Part shown: piece by piece, positions 1 to 37,865 of the stretch
How positions within the stretch are numbered: the first letter of the stretch is position 1
How the letters are laid out: every line of letters starts with the position of its first letter
Assembly: GCA_965215305.1 (NCBI GenBank)
Contig: OZ244041.1
Location: forward strand, 3,177,689 to 3,241,688
From: Alphaproteobacteria bacterium
Lineage (GTDB): Bacteria > Pseudomonadota > Alphaproteobacteria > Bin95
Length of the DNA stretch: 64,000 bases
Direction of reading: 5' to 3'
Program-made: the position numbers and the translations under genes
The notes under the pieces: generated by a model
Seen by the model: only the letters and a program-made list of their open reading frames with translations
Told to the model about the DNA's origin: nothing
The model's database searches: none

Positions 1-756
1 GTCGGCAAGCCCCGTCTCCAGCGCGACCTCGACGAAAATCAATGGCTCGTCCGGCATGCTCGGATGGAAGAAGGCGTAGCATCGGCGGTCCGAATCGAGC
101 CGGTTCTTCAGGTCCTGCCAACTCCGGATGGCATGCACGGCCTCATAGTCGATCAGCTTTTCCAGCAGTGAGGCCGGGGCGTTCCAGTCGATCCGCCTCA
201 ACTCCAGGAAGCCGGCGTCGAACCAGCTCGCCAGCAGGCGCTTCAAATCCTTCTCCAGACCCGAGAGCGCCGCATCCTCACGCGCGAAGCGGATCAGGTC
301 ATAACGCAGATCGACCAGAAACTTCACGCCGTCGGCAAGCGCATTGAATTGCCGCAGCAGGCGTTCGCGCGGGGGGCCGAGAGCATCCCGGAGCGCATCT
401 TCCGCAGCCGCCCGGCCCTCGGGCGCGGCCGCCTCCAGTGCCTTGATCGCCCGACCGACCGCCGCCGGGTCCCGATCGAACTCTGTCGCCAGGATGGACA
501 GGTAGCGGCGGCGTCCCGTCCCGGACAATTGGAGATAGGCCCTGCCGAGATCGACCGCGCGGCTGCGCGCCGAAACTTCACCGCCCCGGCCCTCGAGGCA
601 GGCCCAGAAGCGCTCGCGTATGCGCTCTGCATCGCCTTTTGTCAGATCGGGATCCGGATCGAGGCCGTCGCCGCCGATCAACCCGCGCACGGCCTCCTTC
701 AGCCCCGCAATCGTGCGGTCGAACAGTCTGGAGACTTCTGCTTCGGACCGGCTCAT
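1..756 (-). CDS. Malonyl-CoA decarboxylase (MCD), N-terminal ~250 aa; the gene continues past the window start
   Basis: Manual reverse-strand translation from ATG at 756-754 gives MSRSEAEVSRLFDRTIAGLKEAVRGL...CYAFFHPSMPDEPLIFVEVALETGLAD, the conserved MCD catalytic-region motif. Missing from the ORF track because no stop lies inside the window. The start overlaps the nnr stop (ATGA). Confidence 0.7.
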   Translation of the reverse strand, partial: MSRSEAEVSRLFDRTIAGLKEAVRGLIGGDGLDPDPDLTKGDAERIRERFWACLEGRGGEVSARSRAVDLGRAYLQLSGTGRRRYLSILATEFDRDPAAVGRAIKALEAAAPEGRAAAEDALRDALGPPRERLLRQFNALADGVKFLVDLRYDLIRFAREDAALSGLEKDLKRLLASWFDAGFLELRRIDWNAPASLLEKLIDYEAVHAIRSWQDLKNRLDSDRRCYAFFHPSMPDEPLIFVEVALETGLAD

Positions 757-2225
757 CTCATATGCACCTCGCGCAGAACGGCCGGCAACATGTTCGGCAA
801 GTCCTCCGCAATCAAGCCCGGCCCGAAGGCCGCCGCCGCCTCCCCGTGCAGCCATGTTGCCGCAGCCGCCGCCTCGAAGGCGGCCATGCCCTGCGCCATC
901 AGCCCGACGGCCATGCCGGCCAGCACATCGCCGCTGCCTGCGGTCGCGAGCCAAGGCGGCGCATTCGCCGAAATCGCCGCGCGACCGTCGGGCGCAGCGA
1001 CCACACTGTCAGCGCCCTTGAGCAGCACGGTCCAGCCGCTCGCCGCCGCTGCCGCACGCGCCCTTGCGAGCCGGTCGCCGCCGAATGGAAAGAGGCGCGC
1101 GAATTCGCCGTCATGGGGTGTCAGCAGCCCGGCATCCCCCCGACCCTCGGGCAAATGTTCCGCCATCGCCGTCAGAGCGTCGGCATCGAGCACGACCGCT
1201 CCGGGGCGTGCGCAGGCCGCTTCCACGGCGTCTGCCGTTTCGGGGCCGAGGCCCGCGCCGGGGCCGACCAGCACGGCATTCTTGCGCTTGTCCTCCAGCA
1301 GGCGCCGGAAGTCCTCGGGCCTGCTCCGCCGCACAACCAGCGCGGCGGGCAGCGAGACCGCATAGACCGGCCAGGCTTCGTCCGGCGCGGAAACCGTCAC
1401 CAGACCGGCGCCCGCCCGCATCGCGCCCCGCGCCGCCAGCCGCGCCGCGCCGGTCGTCTCCGCCCCGCCCCAGACGACGGCATGGCCGCGCGTGTATTTG
1501 TGGCTCTCCGGCCCCGGAACGGGCAGCGTCCACAAGTCCGGGCCGTTCTCGAAGGCGGCGGGCGCGATCTCGTCCAGCACCGCCTCCGGAATACCGATAT
1601 CGGCAGTGACGATCTCGCCGCAATGCAGCCGCCCGGGCAGCAGCAGATGGCCCGGCTTCTTGCGGAAGAAGGTGACCGTGAGCGCTGCGCGGGGGGCATG
1701 GCCCAATACCGCGCCGCTGTCTCCGGCAATGCCGCTCGGCAGATCCACCGCGACCAGCGGCAGGCTCGCCGCCGCTTCCAGCACCTCGCGCGCCGCGCCG
1801 GACACAGGCCGTTTCAGCCCGGCCCCGAACAGGGCGTCGATGACCAGACAGGCATCCCGCAGCGCTGCAGGACCGAGCGGCTCGACCGGCCCCCGCCAGT
1901 GTCGCGCCGCCTCGGCCGCATCGCCGGAAAGCGCTGTGCGCCGGCCGAGCAGCGCCACGCGCACCGGCCAGCCGGCGGCTTGCAGCCTTTCCGCCGCGAT
2001 AAAGCCGTCGCCGCCATTATTGCCGGGCCCCGCCAGCACCAGTGCAGGCCGCGGGCTCCAGCGCCGGCGCACTGCCTCGGCGATGGCGGCGCCGGCCCTG
2101 CGCATCAGCTCGAAGCCCGGATGTCCGTGGTCCACCGCCAACCGGTCGGCCCGGCCCATCTCCTCGACCGTCAGCAGCACCGAGCGGCCGCGCATGGCGG
2201 GAGGAACGGCTTCGTTCAGTCCCAT
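753..2225 (-). CDS. nnr: Bifunctional NAD(P)H-hydrate epimerase / ADP-dependent NAD(P)HX dehydratase (YjeF-N + YjeF-C)
   Basis: The 601-aa ORF contains a YjeF-N motif (ALVLAGPGNNGGDGFIAAERL) and a YjeF-C carbohydrate-kinase region (HKYTRGHAVVWGGAETTGAARLAARGAMRAGAGLVTV). I chose the start at MGLNEAVPP (about 2226); upstream of that the frame runs antisense through the nudix gene. Confidence 0.85.
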   Translation of the reverse strand: MGLNEAVPPAMRGRSVLLTVEEMGRADRLAVDHGHPGFELMRRAGAAIAEAVRRRWSPRPALVLAGPGNNGGDGFIAAERLQAAGWPVRVALLGRRTALSGDAAEAARHWRGPVEPLGPAALRDACLVIDALFGAGLKRPVSGAAREVLEAAASLPLVAVDLPSGIAGDSGAVLGHAPRAALTVTFFRKKPGHLLLPGRLHCGEIVTADIGIPEAVLDEIAPAAFENGPDLWTLPVPGPESHKYTRGHAVVWGGAETTGAARLAARGAMRAGAGLVTVSAPDEAWPVYAVSLPAALVVRRSRPEDFRRLLEDKRKNAVLVGPGAGLGPETADAVEAACARPGAVVLDADALTAMAEHLPEGRGDAGLLTPHDGEFARLFPFGGDRLARARAAAAASGWTVLLKGADSVVAAPDGRAAISANAPPWLATAGSGDVLAGMAVGLMAQGMAAFEAAAAATWLHGEAAAAFGPGLIAEDLPNMLPAVLREVHMR

Positions 2226-2887
2226 TCCATGATGCGCTTGCCATAGAGCGTCTTCACGACCGGCACCGGCCGGCTCATGTCGTGCAGCCGGTCTTCGGCG
2301 AGACGGGACTCGATTTCCTTCAGCACGAGCGCCGTGATCGGCCGAAGCTTGAGGCGCTGCGCATCGGCCAGCCGCACCCAGTGCAATTTGAGCAACTCGC
2401 CCGACCCCTCGCTCAAGTCGCCCCGCACATGCTCGGCATCGATCACGAAGAAGCGTGCGTTGAAACGACGCGGTCTCCCAGGCGGCGTTACGGCCCGGTG
2501 GATATAGGTGAGCCTGTCGAGCGCCGGAGCATAGCCGCTCGCGTAGAACTGCCGCCAATCGTCTGACAGGCCGTCGGGCGCAGCGCCGTCCACAGGCTCG
2601 CCCACGATCAGTCCGGCTTCCTCGAAGGTCTCGCGCACCGCTGCCAGCGCCAGCGCCCTGGCCCGCCGCGCTGTCGCGGAGGAGCGCAGCCGTTCCTCGA
2701 CCTCCGGGCGCAATTCGCGCGCCGCCGGCGCATGGCCGTCTTGCGGGTCCACCCTGCCGCCGGGGAAAACATAGTGCTCCGGATAGAAGACATGGCCCCG
2801 CGAACGTTCGCCCATCACAACCTCACCGGTATCCCGGCGGAGGATGACGAGGGTGGCTGCGTCGCGGATCGGCGTTCTAGCCGGCAT
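2216..2887 (-). CDS. NUDIX hydrolase (CoA pyrophosphatase-like)
   Basis: 223-aa ORF with a Nudix box (GGRVDPQDGHAPAARELRPEVEERL...RETFEEAGL). Its 3' end overlaps the nnr start, which suggests an operon. Confidence 0.7.
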   Translation of the reverse strand: MPARTPIRDAATLVILRRDTGEVVMGERSRGHVFYPEHYVFPGGRVDPQDGHAPAARELRPEVEERLRSSATARRARALALAAVRETFEEAGLIVGEPVDGAAPDGLSDDWRQFYASGYAPALDRLTYIHRAVTPPGRPRRFNARFFVIDAEHVRGDLSEGSGELLKLHWVRLADAQRLKLRPITALVLKEIESRLAEDRLHDMSRPVPVVKTLYGKRIMEWD

Positions 2888-2930
2888 CTCTCACAAAGGT
2901 CACGGCCTGCGCCGCGCCCCGGACGGGCCG

Positions 2931-3008
2931 TGGGGTGCCCAACCGGATTTGAACCGGCGACCTCCTGGACCACAACCAGGCGCTCTAACCGACTGAGCTA
3001 TGGGCACC
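2931..3008 (-). tRNA. tRNA-His (anticodon GTG), with G-1 and an encoded CCA
   Basis: The reverse complement reads GGTGCCCATAGCTCAGTCGGTTAGAGCGCCTGGTTGTGGTCCAGGAGGTCGCCGGTTCAAATCCGGTTGGGCACCCCA. It has a cloverleaf with a GTG anticodon loop, a TPsiC arm GGTTCAAATCC, an 8-bp acceptor stem with the His-specific extra 5' G, and a 3' CCA. Confidence 0.9.
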
Positions 3009-3211
3009 ACGCGGACAGCCTCACAAGGAAGAATGCCATCTAGGCCGTCCGCCCCCCGAAGGTCAAGACCGGAGACGCTTGCATCCATAGCCGTCGCGGA
3101 CCCGGCCGGCCGTCGTTTCGTCCAGCGCCTGGCGCCGGTCCGGGCATTGCGGTGGATTTCGGTTTTGGCCATAGTCCCGCGCCGTCCGCAAAAGACAGGA
3201 TACAGGCCGCT

Positions 3212-4375
3212 ATGCTTCGCCTTGCCGACAACCTGAACCGACTGGGAACCGAGACCGCTTTCGAGGTCCTGGCGCGGGCGGCGAAGCTACAGGCCGAAGG
3301 CCGCGACATCATCAATCTCGGCATCGGCCAGCCGGACTTCAAGACGCCGCCGCATGTGGTCGAGGCGGCGGCGCAGGCGCTGCGCGACGGGCATCACGGC
3401 TACACGCCGGCCAACGGCATTCCGGCGCTGCGCGAGGCGGTGGCGGCGGATATTGCACGCTTTCGCGGCGTCGAGGTCGATCCCGACCTGGTGATGATCC
3501 TGCCCGGCGGCAAACCGACCATGTTCTTCGCCATCATGATGTTCGGGGAGCCGGGCGCCGAGATCGTCTATCCCAATCCCGGCTTCCCGATTTACGAGTC
3601 GATGATCGCATATACGGGTGCCACGCCGGTCGCCATGGCGCTGCATGAGGAGAACGGCTTTGCCTTCTCCGCCGATGAGGTGCTGGCGCAGATCCGCCCC
3701 TCCACGCGGCTTCTCATCCTGAACAGTCCCGCGAACCCGACCGGCGGCGTCGCACCGAAGGCGGAGATGGACAGGCTGGTCGCCGGTCTCGAGGACCATC
3801 CGCATGTGGCAATCCTTTCCGACGAAATCTACAGCCGGCTTCTTTACGAGGATAACGAGCATGTCTCGCTGCTCGGCTATGAGAGCCTGCGCGAGCGGAC
3901 CATCCTGCTGGACGGCTGGAGCAAGACCTATGCGATGACGGGCTGGCGGCTCGGCTACAGCGTCTGGCCCAAGGCGCTGTTTCCGCTGGTCGAGCGGCTG
4001 GCGGTAAACTGCCATTCCTGCGTCAACGCCGCCACACAATATGCCGGCATCGCCGCTCTGAACGGACCGCAGGACGCCGTGGAGACCATGCGGCAGGCAT
4101 TCGATGCACGCCGGCGCATCATCGTGCGGGCGCTCAACCAGCTTCCCGGTTTCCGCTGCGTCGATCCGGGTGGCGCATTCTACGCCTTCCCCAATATCGA
4201 GGGCACCGGCATGAGCGCACGCGAACTGCAGAGCCGGATGCTGGAGGAGGCGGGCGTCGCGACCGTGGCCGGAACCAGCTTTGGCGGACATGGCGAGGGC
4301 TTCATCCGCTTTTCCTACGCAGCGAGCGAGGAAGACATAGAACGCGCGGTGGAGCACATCCGCACGGTGCTGTAA
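3212..4375 (+). CDS. PLP-dependent aminotransferase, class I/II (aspartate/aromatic aminotransferase family)
   Basis: 407-aa ORF with a fold-type I aminotransferase signature (NLGIGQPDF..., PANPTG, and the lysine region SFSKTYAMTGWRLGY). Start chosen at MLRLADNLN; the upstream M at 3152 is also possible. Confidence 0.8.
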   Translation: MLRLADNLNRLGTETAFEVLARAAKLQAEGRDIINLGIGQPDFKTPPHVVEAAAQALRDGHHGYTPANGIPALREAVAADIARFRGVEVDPDLVMILPGGKPTMFFAIMMFGEPGAEIVYPNPGFPIYESMIAYTGATPVAMALHEENGFAFSADEVLAQIRPSTRLLILNSPANPTGGVAPKAEMDRLVAGLEDHPHVAILSDEIYSRLLYEDNEHVSLLGYESLRERTILLDGWSKTYAMTGWRLGYSVWPKALFPLVERLAVNCHSCVNAATQYAGIAALNGPQDAVETMRQAFDARRRIIVRALNQLPGFRCVDPGGAFYAFPNIEGTGMSARELQSRMLEEAGVATVAGTSFGGHGEGFIRFSYAASEEDIERAVEHIRTVL

Positions 4376-4411
4376 CCGCCCGTTAGACAGGCAATCGGAA
4401 TGCCTATGAAA

Positions 4412-4436
4412 TGCGCATATGATGCAGATATGCGCA
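4412..4436. promoter_or_regulatory. Perfect 9-bp inverted repeat TGCGCATAT-N7-ATATGCGCA upstream of glnB (possible NtrC-type enhancer or regulator site)
   Basis: The palindrome is read directly from the sequence. It lies about 65-90 bp upstream of a sigma-54-like -24/-12 element. Confidence 0.3.
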
Positions 4437-4458
4437 AATCCTGTCATCGCACGGCTGA

Positions 4459-4896
<438 letters not shown>

Positions 4897-4952
4897 GAAC
4901 AGGAAACCCCGGCGCAAGCGCCGCCCCGGAACAGAGAGGGAGCCTCCAACTC

Positions 4953-6374
4953 ATGTCGCTCAACTGCAAGACGCCCGACGATGTGCTCAGGGCAATCCAG
5001 GACAATGATGTCCAGCATGTGGACCTGCGGTTCACTGATCCGCGGGGGAAATGGCAGCACACCGCCCAGTACAAGACGACCATCGACGAGGATGTCTTCG
5101 TGGATGGCTTCTTCTTCGACGGCTCGTCCATCGCCGGCTGGAAGGACATCAACGAGTCCGACATGATCCTCATGCCGGATCCGACGACAGCGGTGATGGA
5201 CCCGTTCATGGCGGAGAACACCATGGTGCTGTTCTGCGACGTCCATGAGCCGTCCACCGGCATGGCCTATGACCGCTGCCCGCGCTCGGTCGCCAAGAAG
5301 GCGGAGGCCTATATCCAGGAAGCCGGCATAGGTGACACCGCCTATTTCGGCCCGGAAGCCGAGTTCTTTGTGTTCGACGACGTGCGCTTCGACGTGTCGA
5401 TGAACCGGACCTTCTTCAAGATCGACAGCCTGGAAGGCCCCTACAATTCCGGGACCGAGTTCGACGAGGGCAATCCCGGCCACCGGCCGGACGTGAAGGG
5501 CGGCTACTTCCCCGTAGCACCCGTGGACAGCGGCCAGGACATGCGCTCGGAGATGGTCTCAACCATGGCCGAGATGGGCCTTGACATGGAGAAGCACCAT
5601 CACGAGGTGGCGCCTTCCCAGCATGAGCTCGGCCTGAAATTCGGCACGCTGGTCGGCTCCGCCGACGCACTGCAGATCTACAAGTATGTGACCCATATGG
5701 TCGCGCACAGCTACGGCAAGACGGCGACCTTCATGCCGAAGCCGGTGATGGGCGACAACGGGTCCGGCATGCATGTCCACCAGTCGGTCTGGAAAGACGG
5801 CCAGCCGCTCTTCGCCGGCCATGGCTACGCCGACCTCTCGGAGTTCGCGCTGCACTATATCGGCGGCATCATCCGGCATGCGAAGGCCATCAACGCCTTC
5901 TCCAATCCGCTCACCAATTCCTACAAGCGGTTGATCCCGGGCTTCGAGGCGCCGGTGCTGCTGGCCTATTCGAGCCGCAACCGCTCGGCCTCCTGCCGCA
6001 TCCCCTATGTGGCGAGCCCGAACGGCAAGCGCGTCGAGGTCCGCTTCCCCGATCCGGGCGCGAACCCCTATCTCGCCTTCGCGGCGATGCTGATGGCGGG
6101 CATTGACGGCGTCATCAACAAGATCCATCCGGGCGAGCCGATGGACAAGAACCTCTACGACCTGCCGCCGGAGGAATTGCAGGGCGTCCCGACCGTCTGC
6201 GGCTCGCTCCGCGAGGCGCTGGAAAGCCTGGATGCGGACCGGTCCTTCCTCACGCGCGGCGATGTGTTCACTGACGATCTGATCGACGGCTATGTCGACC
6301 TCAAATGGAACGAGGTCTACGCCCTCGAGCACACGCCGCACCCGGTCGAGTTCAAGATGTATTACAGCGTCTGA
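4953..6374 (+). CDS. glnA: Glutamine synthetase type I
   Basis: 473 aa with GS-I motifs ([24 protein letters not shown], and the adenylylation-site region NLYDLPPEE). It sits directly downstream of glnB, the usual arrangement. An RBS (AGAGAGGGAG) precedes the ATG. Confidence 0.92.
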
Positions 6375-6399
6375 CCCGACGGCAGCCTGCAACAAGCGC

Positions 6400-6435
6400 G
6401 AAGCCTCGCCCCCCGGGCGGGGCTTCATCCTTTCC
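6400..6435. terminator. GC-rich 12-bp-stem hairpin between convergent glnA and acyl-CoA synthetase genes (bidirectional terminator-like)
   Basis: GAAGCCTCGCCC-ccc-GGGCGGGGCTTC is a perfect stem-loop 25 nt after the glnA stop. It lacks a strong T-tract, which is common in high-GC genomes. Confidence 0.45.
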
Positions 6436-6449
6436 AGGCAGGGCGGTTC

Positions 6450-7979
6450 TCAGGGGTCGGCCTGCCCCGCTTCCAGGTCACGGAGTTCGGTCTTCACGAC
6501 CTTGCCGTAATTGTTCTTGGGCAACGCCTCGACGAAGCGGTAGGCCTTGGGGCGCTTGAAGCGGGCCATGCGGTCGAGGCAATGGCGATCGAGCGCATCC
6601 GGCGCGGGTCGGGCGCCGGCGGCAACAACATAGGCAATGACAGTCTCGCCCCATTCCGGATCCGGCCGGCCGATCACCGAGACCTCGTCGACGCCCGAGT
6701 GGGTCAGCAGCACCTCCTCGATCTCGCGGGGATAGATATTGACGCCGCCCGAGATAATCATGTCCTTCGAGCGATCCTTGAGCGTCACATAGCCTTCCTC
6801 GTCCAGGATGCCGACATCACCCGTATGCAGCCAGCCGCCCTTCAGCGCCGCTTCCGTCGCCTCCGGGTTATTCCAGTAGCCGTTCATCACGACCTCGCCG
6901 CGCACCTGAATTTCACCGATCTCGCCAGGTGGCAGCGTGCGTTCGTCCCCATCCGCAATACGCACTTCCACATTGGAGAAGGCCCGTCCCGCCGAGGCCA
7001 GCCGTTCCTCGTAGCGCGGATGGTCCACATCCGCGATCTCCTCGCGCCTGAGGCTCGTGATCGTCATCGGGCATTCACCCTGCCCGTAGATCTGGATGAG
7101 CTTGGGTCCCCAGAGTTCGAAGGCGCGCTTGGCGTCGGCCACATACATCGGCCCGCCGCCATAGACGATGGATCGCAGATTCGTAACATCGGCGCTTTCG
7201 GCCGCCGGATGGTCGATCAGCCGCTTCACCATGGTGGGCGCGGCGAAGAAGCTGCTGCCCCTGTAATGGCGGATGAGCGCGAAAATCTCCTCCGGGTCAA
7301 ACCCGCTCTCCGGCACCACCTGCGGGCTTGCCCGCGCGACATGGGGAATGTTGTAGCAGCCGGAGCCGTGGCTCAGCGGTGCCGGGTGCAACGCTGCGTC
7401 GCCCTCGGCGATCTCGTCCACATCGGAGAAATAGCCGAGCGTGCAATGCAGCAGGTTGCGGTGCGAAAGCGCCGCGCCCTTCGGCCGGCCCGTCGTGCCG
7501 CTGGTGTAGAACAGCCAAGCATTGTCTGTCGGCGCGACATCTGCAAGCCCGAGCCGCTCGCCTTCATAGAGCGCCCGGAACGCCGCCTCGCCCGCGACGA
7601 TCATGCGGTCCACATCCGACAGGTCGTCGCAAACGGGAGCAAGCGCATCGGCCAGGTCCGGCGTGACGGCCACGAAACGCGCGCCGGAATTCCCGAAGAT
7701 ATAGGCGAATTCGTTCGGATGGAGCCGCGCATTGACCGGCACGGCGCAGAGGCCCGCATGCCAGATGCCATAGAGCATCTCGATGAATTCGGGGCAATTT
7801 TTCATCGCGATCGCCACGCGGTCGCCGGGCCTGAGGCCAGCGGCGCGCAGCGAGCCGGCAATGGCGGCGACACGGTCGGCGAGTGTGCGGTAGTCGGCAT
7901 GGGGCGCGAAGCCGCGCGCGAGCGCCAGATTATCGGGCCTCGCGCGGGCAGCGCGGATCAACAGGGCGGCCAGGTTCAT
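6450..7979 (-). CDS. AMP-dependent synthetase/ligase (acyl-CoA synthetase family)
   Basis: AMP-binding motif YTSGTTGRPKGA, plus the C-terminal region GWLHTGDVG...DRSKDMIISGGVNIYPREIEEVL. Start chosen at MNLAALLIRAA. Confidence 0.8.
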   Translation of the reverse strand: MNLAALLIRAARARPDNLALARGFAPHADYRTLADRVAAIAGSLRAAGLRPGDRVAIAMKNCPEFIEMLYGIWHAGLCAVPVNARLHPNEFAYIFGNSGARFVAVTPDLADALAPVCDDLSDVDRMIVAGEAAFRALYEGERLGLADVAPTDNAWLFYTSGTTGRPKGAALSHRNLLHCTLGYFSDVDEIAEGDAALHPAPLSHGSGCYNIPHVARASPQVVPESGFDPEEIFALIRHYRGSSFFAAPTMVKRLIDHPAAESADVTNLRSIVYGGGPMYVADAKRAFELWGPKLIQIYGQGECPMTITSLRREEIADVDHPRYEERLASAGRAFSNVEVRIADGDERTLPPGEIGEIQVRGEVVMNGYWNNPEATEAALKGGWLHTGDVGILDEEGYVTLKDRSKDMIISGGVNIYPREIEEVLLTHSGVDEVSVIGRPDPEWGETVIAYVVAAGARPAPDALDRHCLDRMARFKRPKAYRFVEALPKNNYGKVVKTELRDLEAGQADP

Positions 7980-8076
7980 CCGGGGTCTCCGGCAGGGGGT
8001 GGCCACCAGTCAAGCAAGCCTCGCCCTGCCCGTGCAAGCCCCGGTACCGGGGCAGGTGACCGTCCGCCGGAGATCG

Positions 8077-8946
8077 TCAGCAAGCGCCGGCGGCCTCCCT
8101 GAAGCTTGCAAGCGCGCGGATGCGCTCTTCCACGGACTCGACCCTGTAGAGCGGATAGAGCGTCAGCAGGCTCGCGCCGAGCGCCCGCCAGCCCTCTGCT
8201 GCCGCAGCCCATTGCTGCGCATCCGGCGTGTCGGCGCGCATCCAGGCGTCGATGCCGAATGAAGCGGGATCGCGGCCTTCCGCTTCCAGCAGGCCGTGCA
8301 TGGTCTCGACCAGTCGCTTGCCGCTGTCGTCGGGCCGGGCGATGGGAATCCATCCGTCGCCCATCTTCGCCGTGCGGCGCAGCACGGCCGGATGCGTGCC
8401 GCCGAACCAAATCGGGATCGGCCGCTGCACCGGCAGGGGGTTGAGCCCGGCTTGCGAGAAGCCGTGCCAGCGGCCCTCGGTCGTCACCAGCTCCTCGGTC
8501 CAAAGCCGGCGCATCAGCGACACCTGTTCCGCCTGCCGGGCGCCGCGCGTCTCCCAGTCCTCGTTCAGCGCCTCGTATTCGACGAAATTCCAGCCCGTGC
8601 CGATGCCGAGCCGGAGCCGCCCGCCGGAGAGGATATCGACCTCCGCCGCCTGCTTGGCGACCAGCGCCGTCTGGCGCTGCGGCAGGATGAGTACGCCGGA
8701 GGCGAGCCCGATGCGCTCCGTGCAGGCGGCCAGATAGCCCATGGTGACGAAGGTCTCGTGGAACTGGTCGCGATGCGTGTAGGGCGGCTTCCAGCCTTCG
8801 CGCGAAGCAGGGTCGGCGCCAAGCACATGGTCCGGCACGGTGATCCAGTCATAGCCCAGCTCTTCCGCCGCCTGCGCCCAGTCGCGCATGGCAGTGAAGT
8901 CGGAGCCGAAATCCCTGGTCGGAAAAAAGGCGCAAAGCCCGGCCAT
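8077..8946 (-). CDS. LLM-class (luciferase-like) flavin-dependent oxidoreductase
   Basis: Motifs DWITVPDHVLGADP..., ILSGGRLRLGIGTGW and a TIM-barrel LLM signature. Start chosen at MAGLCAFFPT. Confidence 0.7.
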   Translation of the reverse strand: MAGLCAFFPTRDFGSDFTAMRDWAQAAEELGYDWITVPDHVLGADPASREGWKPPYTHRDQFHETFVTMGYLAACTERIGLASGVLILPQRQTALVAKQAAEVDILSGGRLRLGIGTGWNFVEYEALNEDWETRGARQAEQVSLMRRLWTEELVTTEGRWHGFSQAGLNPLPVQRPIPIWFGGTHPAVLRRTAKMGDGWIPIARPDDSGKRLVETMHGLLEAEGRDPASFGIDAWMRADTPDAQQWAAAAEGWRALGASLLTLYPLYRVESVEERIRALASFREAAGAC

Positions 8947-9008
8947 CGCTCGTTCCCGTCGCTTCGAAGCCACCAGTATAGAGCGGCCCTGCCGCGCGCG
9001 CCTGCGGC

Positions 9009-10424
9009 ATGCGGTCGGATGACATCCGGATGATCGGGAACATAGAATCGACCTTCATGACACTTCGGACACAACGCCTCAGGGACCCCGTCCACGGTCT
9101 GATCGTCTTCGAGAAGGATAACGCTCTGGCCCAATTGGCCTGGAAGCTCATAAACACCCCGGAATTCCAACGACTTCGACGGATCAAGCAGCTTGGAGTT
9201 TCGGAGTTCGTCTTCCCCAATGCGGTCCATACCCGCTTCGCCCACTCCATCGGGGTGTTTCATACCGCGCGGGAACTAGTGCACATCATTGAGCGTGAAA
9301 CCGCAGCCGATTCGACTTTCTCTCAACCGCGCGCCGATGTAGCGACCATCGCTGCCCTGTTGCACGATCTGGGCCATGGCCCGTTCAGCCATACCTTCGA
9401 GGGAGTGCAAGAATCTCGCGGCATCGAGAAGCGGCACGAAAAATGGACCGCCGACATCATCCGCAATACGGATGGGGCCATTCGTCCTCTGCTTGAGACG
9501 CATCGTGCCGGCTTAACAGATGAAGTGGCCTCGCTTGTCGCGGCGGAGGACCCGACCGACATCTATCACGCTGTTGTGTCGAGCTCTTTCGATGCGGACC
9601 GCCTGGACTACCTCCGGCGTGATAGGTTGATGACGGGGACCGGCGCGGGCGCCATCGATTTCGACTGGCTGATGGAGCATGTCCGCGTTGCCGAAATCGT
9701 GAGCGACGCTCCAGAAAGGGTTACGGGCGAAGATGCCTCCACAGTGGCGACCTTCTGTCTGGACCCGAAGGCGCTGCCCGCGGCCGAGCAGTTCCTGTTG
9801 TCGCGCTACGCCCTCCACGAGCAGGTCTATCTGCACAAGACGACCCGCTGCATTGAAGCCATGATCGGCAAGCTGTTGAGACAGATCGCAAAGACCGTCG
9901 GGGAGCCCGATACGGCATCGGCTCAAACGGGCCTGGAACCGAACCACGTCCTGCTGCGCTTTTTCGCCCCGGGCGGCGAGACCATCCACAACTATTTGGC
10001 GCTCGATGACCTCGCCATCACTGGTTCGCTGGAGCGAATGCGACAGGGAGACGATCCAATGATCGCTGAGCTGGCGGCGCGGCTTCGCGAACGGCGTCTT
10101 TACAAGACGCTCGACCTTGGTCGCTTCGGGTCCGACTTCGGGAGGCAACGTCAGGCCGCGCGAAGGATCGATCACGAGTTCGAGGTGAAGCTCGGCAACG
10201 GCACGGTAATAAAGGATGAGAACGCCTCGGTTGGCATCTACACGCCGATTGGCGGCGACGAGGACAAGATGCACAATAAACTGCACATCCTCGACGCCGG
10301 TCGGCCCCGCGAAATCACGGAAATGTCGAAGATGATCGAGACACTGGCCAGCAAGCGCCAATTTACGCGATACTACTTTGCCGATGCGGCGGATCGCGAT
10401 ATCGCGGCAGAAAGGGGGCGGTGA
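9009..10424 (+). CDS. HD-domain phosphohydrolase, SAMHD1/dGTPase-like (putative dNTP triphosphohydrolase)
   Basis: Motifs RDPVHGLIVFE, LINTPEFQRLRRIKQLG, FPNAVHTRFAHSIGV (the H...HD metal site), LLHDLGHGPFSH and SSFDADRLDYLRRD match the dNTPase-type HD fold. Local GC is about 55-58% against about 68-70% in the flanks. An alternative start at MTLRTQRL (9057) is possible. Confidence 0.75.
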   Translation: MRSDDIRMIGNIESTFMTLRTQRLRDPVHGLIVFEKDNALAQLAWKLINTPEFQRLRRIKQLGVSEFVFPNAVHTRFAHSIGVFHTARELVHIIERETAADSTFSQPRADVATIAALLHDLGHGPFSHTFEGVQESRGIEKRHEKWTADIIRNTDGAIRPLLETHRAGLTDEVASLVAAEDPTDIYHAVVSSSFDADRLDYLRRDRLMTGTGAGAIDFDWLMEHVRVAEIVSDAPERVTGEDASTVATFCLDPKALPAAEQFLLSRYALHEQVYLHKTTRCIEAMIGKLLRQIAKTVGEPDTASAQTGLEPNHVLLRFFAPGGETIHNYLALDDLAITGSLERMRQGDDPMIAELAARLRERRLYKTLDLGRFGSDFGRQRQAARRIDHEFEVKLGNGTVIKDENASVGIYTPIGGDEDKMHNKLHILDAGRPREITEMSKMIETLASKRQFTRYYFADAADRDIAAERGR

Positions 10425-10954
10425 TGGAACGGGAAGAGATCGTCGCAGCCTTGCTCAAGGCCGCAGGCGGTCAAATCGTCGGCCGCGTTCGTCTTCAGAA
10501 GGTCGCCTATCTTCTGGACCGGTTAGGGCTGGATAGCGGCTTCCAATACCGCTACCACCACTACGGTCCCTTCTCCCGAGACCTCGACAACGCCGTGGCC
10601 GATGCCGAGGCGTTCGAGCTTGTTGAGGAGAAATTCGGTCGCCGGCAGGTCGATGGAGCCCGCTACAGCATCTTCATGCTGACTAACGACGACTTCAGCT
10701 TGCCTTCGAAGATTGGTCGGCTCAACGAGACGGTGCTCAAGCGTCATCTGCAAATGTTTGGAGAGGCCGACGTCACCGTGCTTGAGCTCGCTGCCACGGC
10801 TAACTGGTTGGTGGAGGAAGAAGGGCGGACCGACTGGCAGGAGGCGTTGCGTCGCCGCAAAGGCCCTAAGGTGGAAGGCGGCCGGCTGGACCGGGCCCTG
10901 GCCTTGCTTCGCGAGATCGGCCTGCCTCCGGCGACCGTGGACGCGAACGCTTAG
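10421..10954 (+). CDS. Panacea-domain (DUF4065, SocA-like antitoxin domain) protein
   Basis: The N-terminus (IVAALLKAAGGQIVGRVRLQKVAYLLDRLGLDSGFQYRYHHYGPFSRDLDNAV) matches the Panacea/DUF4065 core (KLQKLLYYAQ...W.YGPV.PEVY). Its start overlaps the HD gene stop (TGATG), implying translational coupling. Confidence 0.5.
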   Translation: MMEREEIVAALLKAAGGQIVGRVRLQKVAYLLDRLGLDSGFQYRYHHYGPFSRDLDNAVADAEAFELVEEKFGRRQVDGARYSIFMLTNDDFSLPSKIGRLNETVLKRHLQMFGEADVTVLELAATANWLVEEEGRTDWQEALRRRKGPKVEGGRLDRALALLREIGLPPATVDANA

Positions 10955-11122
10955 GCGACACAGCGCTCCCCATAGAGGCTGCTCCGGTAGCCCTTCCCGG
11001 TTTCCGTGCAAAAACAACCGCCATACAGACGGTGAAGTCGCTCCGGCCTCTCCATTAGCCGAGGCTCCCACCACCCGTTCGATTGCTGCCATAATGGCCG
11101 CGACGGGACGGGAGGGAGACCG

Positions 11123-11893
11123 ATGGGCGTTCTGGACGGCAGGGCGATTCTGATTACGGGCGCAGGCTCCGGCATCGGCAGGGCAACGGCGATTGCCGCG
11201 GCCAAGGCAGGTGCTTCGGTGCTTGCGACCGATATCGACGAGTCCGGCGGGCGCGAGACCGCCGAGAGCACGGGCGGGCGCTTCATGCACCAGGACGTGA
11301 CCGACGAGGCGCGCTGGCAGGAAGTGGCCGAGACAGCCGGGCCGCTGCACGGGCTGGTCAACAATGCCGGCATCGCCATCGTACGCCCGCTGCTTGAGAC
11401 CAGCCTCGAAGACTGGCGCCGGCAGCAAGCCGTCAATGTCGAGGGGGTGTTTCTCGGCGTGAAGCACATCCTGCCGGTCATCCGCGACTCCGGCGGCGGC
11501 GCCATCGTCAACCTGTCGTCGGTTGCGGGCCTTCGCGGCAACAGCGTCGGCCTTTCCTGCTACAGCGCCACCAAGGGCGCGGTCTGTCTGTTCACCAAGT
11601 CCGCCGCGCTGGAGAGCGCGCGGCGCGGCTGGAATGTGCGGGTGAACTCTGTCCATCCCGGCATTATCGACACGCCGATCTGGGACCGGATGGCGGAAAG
11701 CGGCCCTTCGCCCTTCAACGACCCGAACGCCTCGGCAGACCCCGTGCAGCGCGCCTCGGGCCGGGTGCCGGGTGGGCGTCCCGGAGGGCCGGAGAACATC
11801 GCTGACGGCATCGTGTTCCTGCTCTCCGACGCCTCCTCCTACATGACGGGTTCGGAACTCGTCATCGACCACGGCATGACCGCCGGCACCTGA
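11123..11893 (+). CDS. SDR family oxidoreductase
   Basis: Motifs TGAGSGIGRATA (Rossmann), NNAG, and a catalytic S...Y..K region (SSVAG...YSATKGAV). Confidence 0.85.
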   Translation: MGVLDGRAILITGAGSGIGRATAIAAAKAGASVLATDIDESGGRETAESTGGRFMHQDVTDEARWQEVAETAGPLHGLVNNAGIAIVRPLLETSLEDWRRQQAVNVEGVFLGVKHILPVIRDSGGGAIVNLSSVAGLRGNSVGLSCYSATKGAVCLFTKSAALESARRGWNVRVNSVHPGIIDTPIWDRMAESGPSPFNDPNASADPVQRASGRVPGGRPGGPENIADGIVFLLSDASSYMTGSELVIDHGMTAGT

Positions 11894-22635: not shown

Positions 22636-25600
22636 TCACCAGCGCGCGCTGATCTCGAACCCGACAGTATGCTCCGGCTTCGCCCCGTCGCTCTCCCTGC
22701 GTGTCGCCTTCAGCCGGAAGGAGATATCGGGCGCATTCCTCGCCGGCGTGAGCCGCCAGCCAAGGCTGTAATCGCGCGCGCCGGTGGCCAGACCGATCCC
22801 CATATGCGGGCTGCTGATGAAGCGCCCCGAAAGGGCCGGGAAGCCATATGCCCCCTCGGCAGACCAGCGACTCCCGGAGGTCGAGCCGGAGCCCGTGCGC
22901 TCACTCAGCGGATCGGCCTGGAACAGCGCGTCGAGCCCGCCCTCGGCCTGTCCGCCCCAGTCCTGGCGCAGCGCGAAGGACAGGCCTCGTTCCGAGGCCG
23001 GGTCGGGATCGAAGGCGAGCGAGGTCGCGAAGCCCCGGTTCTCCAGGTCTCCCGCGTCATGCGCCACAAGCGCCCGACCCGAAAGGTCGAGCGAGAGGCC
23101 GAGACGCGGGTCCATCCAGGCGATGCCGCCGCCGAGTTCGACCCCGAAGCCGGTCTCGGCATCGCCGCCGTCATGGCGCATGCCCATTTCCAGCTTCGGC
23201 GTGATGCTGGCATCGCCCTCCAGCGGCGCCTTCCAGCTGCCCTCCAGACCAAGCCTGAGCCGCGTCACATCGGAATCCGACGCCGCAAGCCCGCGCGTCT
23301 TCTCCGAGGACGTCCCGGCCCACAGCGCGTCCGAGACCAGCGCCAGCCCCGGGCCGCCTGCCCCGGACTCCGATCCAGGGCTCTCCTGCGTTGGCAGCAG
23401 GTCACCGCGCAGGCCCAGGGACGCCATGCTCCACGAGATGTCCGACTTCAGCATCTCGCCCAGCTCGGGTTTGAGCATTACCTCGCCTACGCCGTGGCCG
23501 AGCGCGCCCCAGAGCTTCACACGCTCCGAAGCCTGCAGGGCCAGATAGGGAATCGCCGCCGTCAGCGTGGCCTCCACCTTGCCGCCCGCCCCGCGCCCCG
23601 CACCGCTGCACGGATTGTCCACATCCATGCCCCCGTCGTCATCCAGACAGTGCTGCGCGCCGGTCCCGGAGCCTGCCCCGGACTCCGATCCGGGGTCGGC
23701 ATAGCTGCCCCCGCCCTTGCCGCTGCTCCGCATCAGCGCCATGCCGGCCAGCCATTGGTCCCGCGCATAGTCCGCGCCCAGCATCGCCGTCATCGCCTCG
23801 CCGTCGAGCGAGAAGCGGCCTTCCCGGCCGTCGAAGCCCGACTGCGCCGCCCGGCCCCAGAAGGCGAGGTTGCCGCCAGTGGCGTCCCGTTCTCCCGTCA
23901 GCGTGAAGCGGCTGCCGAGCAACAGGTCCCGCCCGGAAAGTGTCCGTGACCTGTCGGTTGCCCGCTCATCGCCGAACAGCCGGTCGATGTCGGACAGGGA
24001 CAGCCGGGCGCGATCGAACAGGCTTGTCCCGGACAATGAGCCGTGTGGGGACGCCGCCCCGACACCGGTGGAACCACCGAAGGACAGGGCCTGCCCGGCG
24101 ATCATGCCCTGCATGCCGGCCGTCCGCGGCGCCGCGATACGCCCGGCAATGCCGTCCAGCGCCTGCTCGGCGACAGCGCGCCCGAAGCGTGCCAGCCAGG
24201 CCGCCGGCATCGGGTCCGAATTGACGATGGTGCCGATTGCCAGTTCGTCCGCGATGATGGCGCCCTCTGCCTCGGTCAGCACGACGGTGAGGGTCTCCCG
24301 GCCCTCGTCGTGGAAGTCATCGAAGGTCTCGACCCAGAATTCCCCTCGAGTCGACCCCGGGTAAACGGTCACCCGGCTGTCGGCGTAGCGGAAATCCGCG
24401 TGGGGGACCGCCTCCCCGTAGCTCGGCCCGTGGCCGTTTTCGTTGTCGTGGGGGTTCGTCCCAAATCGGGTCTCCCAGTAAACGACTACCTCGTGGTCCA
24501 CCGCATGGGAGAGCGTGAACGTGAAATGCAAATCGTCGCCCTCCGCCGCCTCGACATCATCAATATGGATCGTCGGCAAGGACGGCACTTCGTCGTCGGC
24601 CACCGCGACGGTGGCGCTGGCGTCTGTCGCGTGCGGGGTGTAGCCGGTTCCCGGTTCGACGGTAATGGCGAGGCTGCCGTCGTCTTCAAGCGTCGAGTCG
24701 TCGACGGTCGGGATGTCAACGGTGACGGTGGCGTCCGTGCCGAGCGTCACGGGCCGCGCGCCGAGCTCTCCGTCCCCGGCGAAGGCGCCGCTTTGCGTCA
24801 CGCGCAGGTTCACGGTGATGTCCTGCGAAGGCACAGGGGCGCCTGTCAGCGTGAAGCGCGCAACGCCCCCTTCGGTGATATCGGCACCGCCGGTGATGCG
24901 CACGACGGTCGCCCGAGCGTCATCGTCATCGTCGTTGTCGGCCACCGCCACTGTCGCCGCGGACGGGCTGCCGACCAGGTAGCCGGTTCCGGCCTCCAGC
25001 GTCGCCGACACGCCGCCATTCGCCTCCTTGAGATCGTCATCCGTTGTCGCGAGCGTGTAGGTGGCCGTATCGCTCCCCGCGGCGATCGTGACCGTCTTCG
25101 ATCCCTCCTCGCCATCCATCAGAAAGTCGCTCACCGCGTCGTCGGCAATGGCCAGCGCGATCTCGAGGTCCGACGCCGGCGCGGGACTTGCCTGGACGGT
25201 GAACACGGCGTCGCCGCCTTCGGTGATGTCGCCGCCGGCCGCAATCGTGATCTCGGGATCGGGGTCGGGGGTGTCGCCTATGATCGTGACCCTCGTGTAA
25301 CACAGGGCGGTCGAGGTGCAATGGGCCGCGGCGGCGTTGAATGGGTAGCTCTTCACACCGGGGAAGCCGCGATCCGGGTTGCCGAGCCACTGGAGGCTGT
25401 CCCAGCTGGCAGTGAAGGTTTTGCCCACGGAACCCTTGCACAACTCGATTTCCAGTTCGATCGTGTCGGTATCGATGTCCTCGGCGATGCGCACCAGGGG
25501 TCCGGTTCTCACCATCCCCTCGGGGTAGGAGGGCCAGTGGCCCCAATCGACCACATCCGTTCCAGGTTCCCTGCAATCGCCCCCACCCTGGGCCGTGCCG

Positions 25601-28600
25601 GGGCCCCAATCGAAATAGAAGGCCACATCAATGCCGTGGCCTTTCAGACCCGCCGGCACGGGCATCAGGATCCGGCTGTTTCTGCCGGCATACACCACCG
25701 TGGCCGTCTCAGGTGGCGTGATCCCGCTCACGGGCTCCCGGATCGTGACGACGGCCGTGTCAGGCTCGCCAAGGGTCACGGTGCCCGGTAGTTCGGATGC
25801 CCGGATTGCCAGCTTGAAGGTCTCATTGGGGTCATTCTGGTTGTCGCGTGTGGTCGAAATGCGCGCCTTCCCACTCGTTGTGCCCGCCCGGATCGTGACC
25901 GTCTGCACGCCACCAACGTAGTCCGCGCCGGGTGTCGCGCTGTAGCCGCCCGGGCTGGTCGCCTCCAACTCAATCATCGTATCGGCAGCAGGGGCCTCGG
26001 ACAGGTTGACCGTCACCGAGAGCGAATCGCCCTCCAGCACCTCGTAGCGCGATGTCGAGAGCGAGACCGTGCCCACCGGCCCCGCATTGTCATTGTCCGT
26101 GATGGTGACCGTGGCCGGGGTAATGGTCAGAGCGCCGGAGCTTCCGGTGACCTCGATCGTCTCATCCTCCTCGTGCAGGGCGTCGTCGGTGGGTGTCAGA
26201 TCGAATGTGCCGGTCTCGCTGGCATCGCCCGCAGCGATGGTGATGTCGAAATTCGACACGGCGCCGTAGTCCGTGCCCGAAATGGCCGTGCCCCCGCCCA
26301 CGCTCACCGTCACCGTCCTGGCGTCCACGTAGCGCGTCGTGCCGTTCACGGCGGCCGTCACCGTGATTTGGGTCAACCCATCCCCCTCGTCCAGCGTGGC
26401 GGGCGACACCGAGAGCGTGATGCCGCTGGGCGCCGCGTCATCGTCGGCGATGGTCAGGGTCTGGTCGGTCGGGTTGGTGACGCCCCCGCCGCTGGCGGTG
26501 GCCGAGACCGTCACCGTCTTGTTCGGCGCGTCAATGTCATTGTCCACCGCCGTGATCGTCACCGCGCCGGTGCTGGTGGTCGCTCCAACCGCGATGGTCA
26601 GGGTGGTGCCGCTCAGGGTGAAATCGCCCGCAGCGGTGTTGGCGCCCGCGGCGGCAACCACCGTCAGGGTCACCGCCTCGTTCGACTTGCCCGATAGGGT
26701 GGCGGTCACTGTGCTGGAGTTCGTGGCGCCACTCTCGTTGATGGTGCCTGGCGTCAACATCAGGGTGACCGTCGGCGTGCCCTCGTCGTCCGTAATGGTG
26801 AGCGTCTGGTCGGCCGGGTTCGTCACCCCGCCGCCCGACGCCGCGCCCGACACCACGACCGATGCATTCGGCGCATCCACGTCATTGTCCACCGCCGTGA
26901 TTGTCACCGTGCCGGTGCTGGTCTTCGAGCCCGCCGCGATCGTCAGGGTCGTGTTGCCGCTCAACGTGACCGGGGCATTGTTCGGCACCGAGACCTCCAC
27001 CGTCACCGCCGCACTCGACTCGCCCGACAGCGTCGCCGTCACCGCGCTGGCGTTGCCATTCCCGCTCTCGTTGATGGTCGTTGGATCCAGCGCCAGTGTC
27101 ACCGTGGGCGTGCCTTCGTCATCCGTGATAGTGAGCGTCTGATCAGTCGGGTCGGAAACCCCGCCGCCGCTGGCAGTGGCCGAGACCGTCACGCTCTTGT
27201 TCGGCGCGTCCACATCGTTGTCCACCGCCGTAATCGTCACCGCACCGGTGCTGGTGGTCGCACCCGCCGCGAAGGTCAGGGTCTTGTTGGTGGTCACCGT
27301 GAAATCGGCCGCGACCGTGTCGGCGCCCGCGACGGCGGCCACCGTCAGGGTCACCGCAACGCTCGACTTGCCCGACAGCGTCGCCGTCACCGTGCTGGCG
27401 TTGCCATTCCCGCTCTCGTTGATGGTGGTTGGCGTCAGCACCAGGGTGACCGTCGGCGTGACCTCGTCATCCGTGAGGGTGATGGCCGTCCCGGCGACGG
27501 TGATGCCGGTCAGCGTGCCTTCAATGCTGATGCCCTCACTGGGCTCGTCTATGTCGTCATCGGTGGGCGTGAGCGTGAAGTCCACATAGCCGCTTGAGGA
27601 GCCCGCATCGATCGTGATGCTCTTGCTCTCAACCTCCGTGTAGTCGGTCCCCTCCTCAGCGCCGTCGGCGTCCGCGCCCACCTCCACCGTCACCGTCTTG
27701 GCCTCGGTGAAGGTCGAGCTGCCGCCCAGCGTGGCCGTCACCCGCACCGTCTTCGCACCGCCATCCTCGGCCAGGGAGGTCTGGGTTCCCATCGTGTCCG
27801 TGTCCGCATCCACCGTGAGCGTCAGTGCCGTCGGCGCCGCGTCATCGTCGGTGATGGTGCCGGTGGCCTGGGCCGTGGATATCGTGCCGCCCTCCGCCTC
27901 GGTCAGCTCCACCAGGAAGGTCTCGTTGCCCTCGTGCAGCGTGTCCTCCGTGGTGTCGACCGTGAAGGTCTGTGTGCCCACATCCTTGGCGAAGGTCAGT
28001 GTCCGCGCCGTCGTTACCCGAGTGTAGTCGGTGGCTGATGCCGCGTTCGCCCCATCGCTGGAGTCCGGCTTGGTGTTCCACTTCACCGACACCGCATTGT
28101 CCATGGCGCCGCTGCGGGTCACCGTGAAGGTAATCGCATCGCCCTCCGACGCACTCGCGTCCGCCACGGCGAACGACGGCTGGGTGTCGTCGTTCCTGAT
28201 CGTCCCCGTCGCCGTGCCCTTGCCCGACTCGATGCTCACCCCGGTGCCGGGGTCCCCGTCGGCCAGCGCCGGGGCGCTCAACACCGCCTTGAACGTCTCG
28301 TCCGGCTCGAACAGGTCGTCCTGCGTCGTCTGCACCTCAACCGTCTGGCTGGTGACGCCAGCGGCGAAGTTCAACGTCTGTGCTGTGGCAATAGCGGTGT
28401 AGTCGTCCGTGCCGGCGGCTTTGACGCCGTCACCACTATCCGCCGCCGTCGCGATCTTCACCTCCGCCACGTTGTCTTCGGCCCCGGCGCGGCTTACGGT
28501 GAACGCCACCTTGCCGCCCTCGGTGGCCTCCGCATCGGCAATCGAGAAACTCACCGGGGCGTCGGTGTCGGTAAGGGTGACTGTCGCGGGGGTGATCGTG

Positions 28601-34600: not shown

Positions 34601-35103
34601 GCCGGGATCGTCAGCGTGGTGTTGTCGCTCAGGGCAAGGTCGCCCGCGACTGCGGGGGCGACCGCCGTGGCGGAGACCGTGAGCGTCACGGCGTCGCTGG
34701 ACTCCCCGTCCATGGTGGCCGTCACCGTGCTGGCGTTGGTGGCTCCGCTCTCGTTTATCGATGCCGGCGTCAGCACCAGCGTGACGGTGGGCGTGGCGTC
34801 GTTGTCTTCAATGGTGAAGCTCGTGCCTTTCACCGTCACTCCGGCGAGCTCACCGGCCACGGTGACGGTCTCATCCGGTTCGTCCACCTTGTCGTCATTC
34901 AGGGTGAGTGTCAGGTCGTAGGAGACGTTCTCCTCGCCGGCGGACAGGGTGATGTCGAACTCATCCACCGTGTTGTAGTCGCCGCCGGTTCCCTCGGTGG
35001 CGGTGTCCTCGTCGGAGTCGCCTACGGTGATGGTGATGGTTTGGTCGTCGGCAAACTGGGTGTCGCCGTCAATCGTTGCGGTGATCCGCACTGTGGGTTT
35101 ATC
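22636..35103 (-). pseudogene. C-terminal ~4,150-aa part of a giant Calx-beta-repeat autotransporter-type adhesin, separated from its 5' part by the IS66 insertion
   Basis: A continuous frame carries dozens of Calx-beta-like units (T[AE]GxDY..., D[DE]xxDExxE[TS]), with a C-terminal domain of about 590 aa resembling an autotransporter beta-barrel (NLAFWGRAAQSGFDGREGRFSLDGEAMTAMLGADY...GFEISARW, ending in a terminal aromatic). The apparent N-terminal 190 aa of the track ORF (35133-35685) is chance read-through of IS66 DNA in a high-GC frame. Confidence 0.75.
35096..35103. repeat. Target-site duplication GGTTTATC (left copy)
   Basis: Identical 8-mers immediately flank the IS at 35096-35103 and 37858-37865. 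The 8-bp length is characteristic of the IS66 family. Confidence 0.8.
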
Positions 35104-35132
35104 GTAAGCGCTGCCAGAGAGGCACGCCGCTT

Positions 35133-37784: not shown

Positions 37785-37857
37785 CTCCCGCTCCCTGCAT
37801 AGCGGTGAATCTCAAATCACGCCCTCAACTGGAAGGTGCCCCCCGCGCAGCGCTTAC

Positions 37858-37865
37858 GGTTTATC
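37858..37865. repeat. Target-site duplication GGTTTATC (right copy)
   Basis: See the left copy. Confidence 0.8.

Follow-up and report, generated by a model that had tools for sequence, protein, structure and literature searches.

Two adjoining genes in an alphaproteobacterial chromosome raise the question of whether a predicted nucleotide-destroying enzyme is held in check by the small protein encoded directly behind it. The genes lie in the 64,000-nucleotide stretch analysed here, which we call the window (contig OZ244041.1 of GenBank assembly GCA_965215305.1, positions 3,177,689 to 3,241,688, from an Alphaproteobacteria bacterium of the lineage Bin95). The upstream gene encodes an HD-domain phosphohydrolase and the downstream gene a protein of 176 residues, hereafter the partner. 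A first-pass annotation, made from the sequence without database searches, had read them as a horizontally acquired pair, in which a SAMHD1-like deoxynucleoside triphosphate (dNTP) triphosphohydrolase (dNTPase) is translationally coupled to a Panacea (DUF4065/SocA-like) domain protein, and had proposed a new toxin-antitoxin (TA) or antiphage module. We found that the HD and partner genes are a real, conserved unit and that obligate pairing with the partner defines a clade of HD enzymes. A defence or TA role for the pair is plausible from the sequence comparisons described below.

Both predicted open reading frames (ORFs; 9009..10424 and 10421/10424..10954) are present on the plus strand, and the motifs quoted for them (RDPVHG, HTRFAHSIGV, HDLGHGPFSH, DADRLDYLRRD, LQKVAYLL and YHHYGPFSRDL) were all found in the translations. 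The reading of the first gene as a dNTPase of the SAMHD1 kind held up. A Pfam search returned the expected PF01966 (HD; 49.6 bits, cut-off 22) together with PF19276 (HD_assoc_2; 45.8 bits, cut-off 23.1). The best match among solved structures was EF1143 of Enterococcus faecalis (PDB 2o6i; E=1.6e-44, residues 24-368 aligned), and further matches were to two structural-genomics relatives, fungal SAMHD1 (9mr6) and mammalian SAMHD1 (about 1e-23). By sequence, the HD protein is a SAMHD1/EF1143-type dNTPase; these are its closest characterised enzymes and have domains and catalytic residues in common with it. All four dNTPs are substrates of EF1143 (PMC12186491). Across 34 aligned HD relatives, down to 40% identity, residues H58, H103-D104, H107, H112, E115, H127-E128, D179, D181, Y258 and H260 were invariant (numbered from ATG 9057). 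As neither the metal ligands nor the extended catalytic residues vary, selection appears to keep the HD enzymes active. Assignment to the Dgt-type antiphage dGTPases failed: the protein scored 24.5 bits against NF041026 (cut-off 400), and a PADLOC dGTPase match (E=7.6e-10) was limited to the HD core, residues 46-131. The stand-alone antiphage dGTPase of Tal et al. in 2022 is reportedly an HD enzyme that defends by dNTP depletion; it and the window protein are both HD enzymes, and only the core aligns between them.

The strength of the pairing emerged from surveys in both directions. The survey seeded with the small protein covered 80 genome loci and 2 more from contig look-ups (given L numbers below). 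Essentially all 82 have an HD gene directly upstream on the same strand, the exceptions being L028, which lies at a contig edge, and L008, where only a remnant is left. In the reciprocal survey, metagenome HDs were scored against the family profile. The partner lay directly downstream in 23/23 HDs that scored at least 400 bits and had 387 bp or more of downstream sequence, and in only 3 of the 55 that scored below 330 bits. EF1143, with 277 bits, was rejected as a partnered enzyme. It lacks a partner gene and has a housekeeping context, with neighbours encoding lipoate ligase, HAD hydrolase and NUDIX proteins near rpoE and pyrG; in a neighbour-joining tree the partnered HDs cluster together, separately from the group that contains EF1143. 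In three loci (L129, L160 and L162), the HDs group with the unpartnered EF1143-like set, yet a distant partner homolog lies downstream (E=1e-19 to 1e-49), so HD-partner pairing may predate the main clade or extend beyond it.

The pairing also persists across deep divergence. In more than 100 loci with enough upstream sequence, the partner's mate is the same HD type down to about 35% identity. The most divergent partners, which share 35-39% identity and come from low-GC organisms, sit behind a gene with HD and HD_assoc_2 domains and overlap it by 4 nt. Partner promiscuity, the hallmark of Panacea, is ruled out, as even these members keep the same kind of mate. Divergence of the HD and partner proteins is tightly correlated (Mantel r=0.86, a value reached by 0/999 permutations). 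In the window, the HD stop codon and the partner ATG have one base (A) in common within TGATG, as the first-pass annotation had pointed out in arguing for translational coupling, and overlaps proved to be the rule. The 83 junctions available include 35 ATGA overlaps and 8 TGATG/TAATG overlaps, and most of the others overlap or have a gap of at most 15 nt. This stop/start overlap is not due to chance. The arrangement is consistent with genes that are translationally coupled and that are inherited and transferred together.

A scan of 185,579 species genomes, limited by the search pattern, gave 202 matching stretches scattered over genera, and the occurrence of the pair looks patchy. Carriers include cultured strains, among them Azospirillum halopraeferens DSM 3675, Skermanella stibiiresistens SB22 and Mesorhizobium.

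What is the partner? It had been identified as a Panacea/DUF4065 protein, and PF13274 (SocA_Panacea/DUF4065) was expected in a HMMER search of the 177-residue form. No Pfam model, PF13274 included, matched the partner even at E<=1. Among 33 close relatives PF13274 gave one weak match (E=0.093); there was none at E<=0.01 among 65 diverse relatives and none at E<=1 among 8 further distant ones. These four scans rule out membership of Pfam-defined Panacea at the level of the model. The Pfam model thus overlooks a large family of partners, most of them alphaproteobacterial.

Similarity was found to the C-terminal domain (CTD) of DarG. The PADLOC DarG model matched the partner at E=1.2e-10 over model positions 165-301 of 329 only, and the NCBIfam DarG model NF048014 matched at E=1.9e-7 over positions 184-309 of 338 only (30.7 bits, cut-off 250). 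The motifs QK..Y, YGP.S and EL.A..W are common to the partner and the DarG CTD. An AlphaFold model of the partner built from 33 homologs (predicted local distance difference test score, pLDDT, 93.6; predicted template modelling score, pTM, 0.90) is confident and has two parts, a winged helix at residues 1-86 and then a four-helix bundle at 102-165. A fold search with this model returned a full-length match to the DarG chain of the DarT complex (PDB 7yk3) at 16-18% identity. The single partner sequence gave no match among solved structures, and a profile reached 7yk3 at only E=0.85. Together, these profile and model comparisons indicate that the partner is homologous to the DarT-inhibiting CTD of DarG and has the same fold. 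DUF4065 proteins have been described as homologous to this domain, which binds and inhibits DarT (PMC13621843, 2026), and the UniRef name of one partner homolog (P0062) is 'SocA-like Panacea domain-containing protein'. On these two grounds the partner can at best be placed within a wider DarG-CTD/Panacea superfamily. At that level the motif recognition of the earlier reading was right; as an assignment to Pfam-defined Panacea it failed.

The partner is nevertheless not a DarG antitoxin. Its 176 residues lack the macrodomain, and the upstream gene encodes an HD phosphohydrolase, not DarT, at all loci. DarG-style mimicry of single-stranded DNA by an acidic partner is likewise unsupported, because the family is not acidic (median isoelectric point 6.3, range 4.5-10.2). 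Neither the Pfam scan nor the fold search gave a nucleotidyltransferase match. Many homologs are named 'uncharacterized protein YwgA' by the Joint Genome Institute (JGI), and the literature searched held no description of YwgA function. Bacillus subtilis ywgA presumably adjoins ywfO, which encodes an HD phosphohydrolase. A homolog search seeded with a divergent member of the family returned only four metagenomic proteins. In a separate Foldseek comparison with BFVD, the only proteins with folds like the partner model were uncharacterised ones of ~130-160 residues from Sulfolobus viruses (E=1.6e-4 to 6e-3).

The pair moves horizontally between unrelated contexts and phyla. Its ends were mapped by blastn of the window against L001 and L003-L008, and the breakpoints were tight, falling at 8990-9056 on the left and 10941-10969 on the right, which sets the boundaries at about 8990-8997 and 10955-10969. 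The pair is the only block that L003 and L005 have in common with the window. L001, L004 and L008 share just the right one of the two flanks, and the pair in L006 is inverted relative to the left-flank genes. Both flanks of L007 are 89-93% identical to the window and the pair only 81%, which suggests faster evolution of the cassette or allelic replacement at a fixed site. This locus (1-3716, against window 8637-11742) is also longer than the window by about 660 bp in the region upstream of HD. An actinobacterial copy, from Solirubrobacterales, is 67% identical to the window HD, compared with 40-48% for many alphaproteobacterial copies. Neither end of the cassette showed convincing terminal repeats or att-like sites, and clustering of 1,028 neighbouring ORFs gave no third conserved gene; neighbourhoods are highly variable. 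Directly upstream of the pair in L001, a 78%-identical relative, lies a Terminase_2 gene (small terminase subunit; 5094-6074, minus strand), which may be a prophage remnant.

Horizontal acquisition, which had first been argued from base composition, is thus borne out by the tight ends, the unrelated flanks and the cross-phylum copy, whereas the compositional contrast had been overstated. The pair does have a lower GC content than its direct flanks (about 68-69%), but the measured values are 59.6% for the HD gene (72.5% at third codon positions, GC3) and 62.0% for the partner gene (GC3 75.3%), not 55-58%. Compared with the mean and standard deviation (SD) of the 42 genes called in the window (GC 66.7 +/- 3.6%, GC3 81 +/- 5.6%), the dip is real and mild, at about 1-2 SD.

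Some copies, which form a subclade, lie within restriction/DISARM-like operons. In six loci (L013, L019, L026, L034, L041 and L043), at about 100-9400 in each, the HD and partner genes stand in a same-strand cluster in the order SNF2 helicase, methylase, HD, partner, HNH nuclease. The helicase matches the PADLOC models DpdE (2.7e-151) and DrmD (2e-70); the methylase, of roughly 1,330 residues, matches DrmMI (1.7e-75) and also Type IIG models; and the nuclease matches PADLOC HNH at about 1e-27. Spacing within the cluster is tight or overlapping, and the methylase gene of L026 ends in a stop codon that overlaps the start of HD. A DrmMI/Type IIG-like methylase gene lies directly upstream of HD in seven loci (the six and L011), and a restriction-type HNH gene lies downstream in eleven (the six and L018, L028, L036, L052 and L054); in L052 the partner and HNH genes overlap. 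All of these genes share the strand of the pair and are tightly spaced or overlapping. About 11 of the 80 genome loci are beside, or operonic with, SNF2, DrmMI-like or HNH genes. They come from several orders. The five-gene arrangement occurs in cultured strains, A. halopraeferens DSM 3675 (L026) and S. stibiiresistens SB22 included, and we know of no named system with it. Among the neighbours of the pair in L003-L082, PADLOC also matched mad3 in eight cases (best E=1.4e-99) and mad8 in five. These matches probably stem from generic ABC/SMC ATPases (UvrA, ABC-F) and are not counted here as a sign of an association with MADS.

Where the pair has decayed, it was the HD gene that was damaged. It is disrupted in 14 of the 74 assessable loci seeded with the small protein, and in all 14 the partner matches its profile end to end in a single reading frame. 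In L008, part of an IS4/5 transposase and an unrelated ORF have taken the place of HD from about codon 42 exactly to the partner ATG. L006 has a 285-bp in-frame HD deletion, L015 is missing the N-terminal part of HD, and L072 carries an insertion; the remaining loci have frameshifts or a premature stop. Isolate genomes are represented by L002, L043 and L072. Conversely, no close HD relative without a partner was seen among the 23 with enough downstream sequence. This asymmetry is what a TA system predicts, and it is suggestive only, because the loci were chosen by their partner match and some frameshifts may be assembly errors in metagenome-assembled genomes. The ORF that replaces HD in L008 (within 6084-8000) lies at 6974-7600 on the minus strand and encodes 208 residues; it is low in GC, without a Pfam match, and contains a D...E.K-like motif.

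The features of the locus are collected below. The HD gene more likely starts at ATG 9057 than at 9009, since distant relatives start at the equivalent of 9057. A sigma-70-like promoter match ends at 9048, 8 nt before this ATG (1 site found, against 0.5 expected from shuffled sequences), and the stretch 8997-9056 is conserved among close relatives by blastn. From the position of this putative promoter, the transcript may be leaderless or nearly so, on weak evidence; a look for operator-like palindromes close to it gave none. The flanking genes are the luciferase-like monooxygenase (LLM) and short-chain dehydrogenase/reductase (SDR) genes of the first-pass annotation, as Pfam confirmed.

Features of the HD-partner locus (window coordinates)
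Feature	Coordinates	Strand	Basis and remarks
Luciferase-like monooxygenase (LLM)	8077-8973	minus	Pfam; left flank of the pair
Two-gene cassette, mobile block	8997..10960	+	blastn breakpoints against relatives with unrelated flanks
Sigma-70-like promoter match ATGACA-N18-TAGAAT	9019..9048	+	10/12 consensus
HD dNTP triphosphohydrolase, SAMHD1/EF1143 type (by sequence)	9057..10424	+	455 aa from ATG 9057; longest ORF 9009..10424, 471 aa
TGATG stop/start overlap	10422..10426	+	sequence; TGA 10422-10424, ATG 10424-10426
Partner protein, 176 aa	10424..10954	+	predicted N-terminal winged helix and C-terminal helical bundle; alternative start 10421 gives 177 aa
SDR	11123-11893		Pfam; right flank, followed by a second LLM and then a dCache-cyclase

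Elsewhere in the window, the gene with the lowest GC encodes a 966-aa Calx-beta protein (37854-40754, minus strand; 54% GC, GC3 63%), and in composition it stands out more than the HD/partner pair does. A further minus-strand ORF (22636-35685; 4,349 aa) contains at least 9 Calx-beta repeats (Pfam E=2e-90) and probably encodes a giant surface or adhesin-type protein.

We tentatively favour a reading in which the pair is a self-restrained dNTP-depletion module, of a type II TA-like or abortive-infection kind. The HD enzyme would hydrolyse dNTPs to deoxynucleosides and triphosphate. Because the genes appear to be translationally coupled, the two proteins would be made in similar amounts, and the partner would bind the enzyme and keep it off. 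Loss, displacement or out-titration of the partner, for example upon phage infection, would free the enzyme to drain the dNTP pool, halting phage DNA replication and possibly that of the host as well. Two roles would then be open to the module, one in addiction or abortive infection and the other as a plug-in effector within restriction-like operons. A broader version, in which partnered SAMHD1-like HDs are widespread, unrecognised immune effectors gated by a DarG-CTD/Panacea-related protein inhibitor that is specialised for one enzyme clade, alone or within SNF2-methylase-HD-partner-HNH operons, strikes us as possible but doubtful.

The main rival is a regulated housekeeping dNTPase that tunes or sanitises dNTP pools, with the partner as an obligate regulatory or targeting subunit and without any immune or addiction role. 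Several observations weigh against the self-restrained module and have to be set beside it. A pairing this strict and monogamous across deep divergence fits an obligate regulatory subunit equally well, and so does the absence from plasmids and phages. The copies occupy chromosomal sites, and outside the defence-embedded loci the neighbours are mostly housekeeping genes (UvrA, MutS, ArgRS, ABC-F, metabolic enzymes); Pfam analysis of the genes flanking the window copy found no defence neighbours. Synteny is common to the defence-embedded loci, so the number of independent events behind them may be small. Classical TA systems and many defence cassettes are common on plasmids and phages, yet tblastn found no relatives in 72,556 plasmids (PLSDB) or in 50,697 phage genomes (INPHARED). 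The pair was present on 1 of 2.9 million viral contigs in IMG/VR, and integrases were rare (2 of 119 neighbours). The asymmetry of HD decay cannot be counted as statistically significant and comes from the biased sampling noted above. EF1143, too, sits in a housekeeping context, and some bacterial dNTPases are housekeeping enzymes: the dNTPase FssC of Caulobacter promotes progression through the cell cycle, without a phage phenotype (PMC12186491). We nonetheless regard a purely housekeeping role as unlikely. It accounts less well for the apparently patchy occurrence, seen in the pattern-limited scan, and for the frequent loss of the enzyme, and the tight cassette ends between unrelated flanks at about 80% identity and the transfer across phyla also weigh against it. 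Some copies are also operonic with helicase, methylase and HNH genes, and the only known structural relative of the partner is an antitoxin domain.

Two further explanations assign different functions to the proteins themselves. The partner could be a sensor, an activator or a transcriptional autoregulator whose winged helix binds DNA or a phage component and then switches HD on or represses the operon. Many type II antitoxins do autoregulate, and a promoter-like site lies directly upstream of HD. The full-length fold match, however, is to DarG in its complex with DarT, a domain described as a protein-binding inhibitor and not a DNA binder (PMC13621843). The lack of an operator-like palindrome near the promoter also speaks against autoregulation, and strict co-occurrence with one enzyme clade indicates a protein-protein partnership. 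We consider this explanation improbable. We give still less credence to the idea that HD is not a dNTPase and has some other phosphoester as its substrate (a signalling nucleotide, NTPs or a nucleic acid), the partner serving to direct or restrain that activity. The chemistry of the HD superfamily is diverse, a substrate cannot be read from sequence with certainty, and modified nucleotides or the 5' ends of RNA have been put forward as targets of YwfO-like proteins (PMC4993169). Against this, proven dNTPases (EF1143, SAMHD1 and fungal SAMHD1) give the best matches, which extend over more than 300 residues; the protein contains the HD_assoc_2 region; and its extended catalytic residues, the HE dyad and VY.H among them, are invariant.

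Two known systems bear on the novelty of a self-restrained module. The first-pass annotation had held that an HD-dNTPase with a Panacea partner is not an established architecture. The searched literature contains no discussion of a Panacea or DarG-like antitoxin paired with an HD toxin, but a similar combination has been listed. Dataset S1 of Kurata et al. 2022 contains the putative toxin cluster pT33/T34, an HD domain-containing protein (YdhJ/COG1078) with PanA, in T|A order and with a spacing of -17 to +23 nt; its five entries, all from thermophilic Clostridia, are marked untested (PMC8832971). The entry is absent from the main-text discussion of that paper, and the dataset also holds obvious non-toxins such as carbonic anhydrase (PMC8832971). 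As described, pT33/T34 resembles the window pair in having an upstream HD phosphohydrolase and a downstream small Panacea-type protein; T34 proteins include WP_115792120.1 and WP_115792121.1. Its partners were found with the DUF4065 model, which the window family fails. The architecture is therefore catalogued and not characterised.

The antiphage two-gene operon Clover shares the proposed logic. Its dNTPase, CloA, is toxic unless restrained by the operon partner CloB, as we propose for the HD enzyme; in Clover, however, the restraint is a nucleotide signal, p3diT, made by the CloB nucleotidyltransferase, and not a binding protein (PMC12265719). The pair described here is not a member of Clover, its partner being a predicted winged-helix and helical-bundle protein and not a Pol-beta-type nucleotidyltransferase. 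CloA was aligned by its authors with Shewanella dGTPase (PMC12265719). Because the latter (9p8w) matches the window HD only at E=8e-4 and over residues 46-131, CloA belongs to a different HD branch. What is new here is a partner family missed by Pfam, its structural link to the DarG CTD, an obligate pairing that defines an enzyme clade, and the five-gene defence-operon variant.

Depletion of dNTPs is an antiviral strategy of both animals (SAMHD1) and bacteria (dGTPase, Clover), and how cells keep toxic dNTPases safe is only beginning to be understood. If the self-restrained module is real, it would add a third solution to allosteric control and nucleotide signalling, namely a dedicated protein inhibitor derived from an antitoxin fold. 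The broader version, if true, would also join nucleotide depletion to DNA-targeting immunity and offer a bacterial parallel to the regulation of SAMHD1. The idea is directly testable, because the family is well defined, the partner is constant in the clade and cultured strains carry the pair. Independently of this, the five-gene operon with helicase, methylase and HNH genes offers a starting point for work on composite defence systems. Even if the role of the pair proves to be housekeeping, it would still reveal a new regulatory subunit of bacterial dNTPases.

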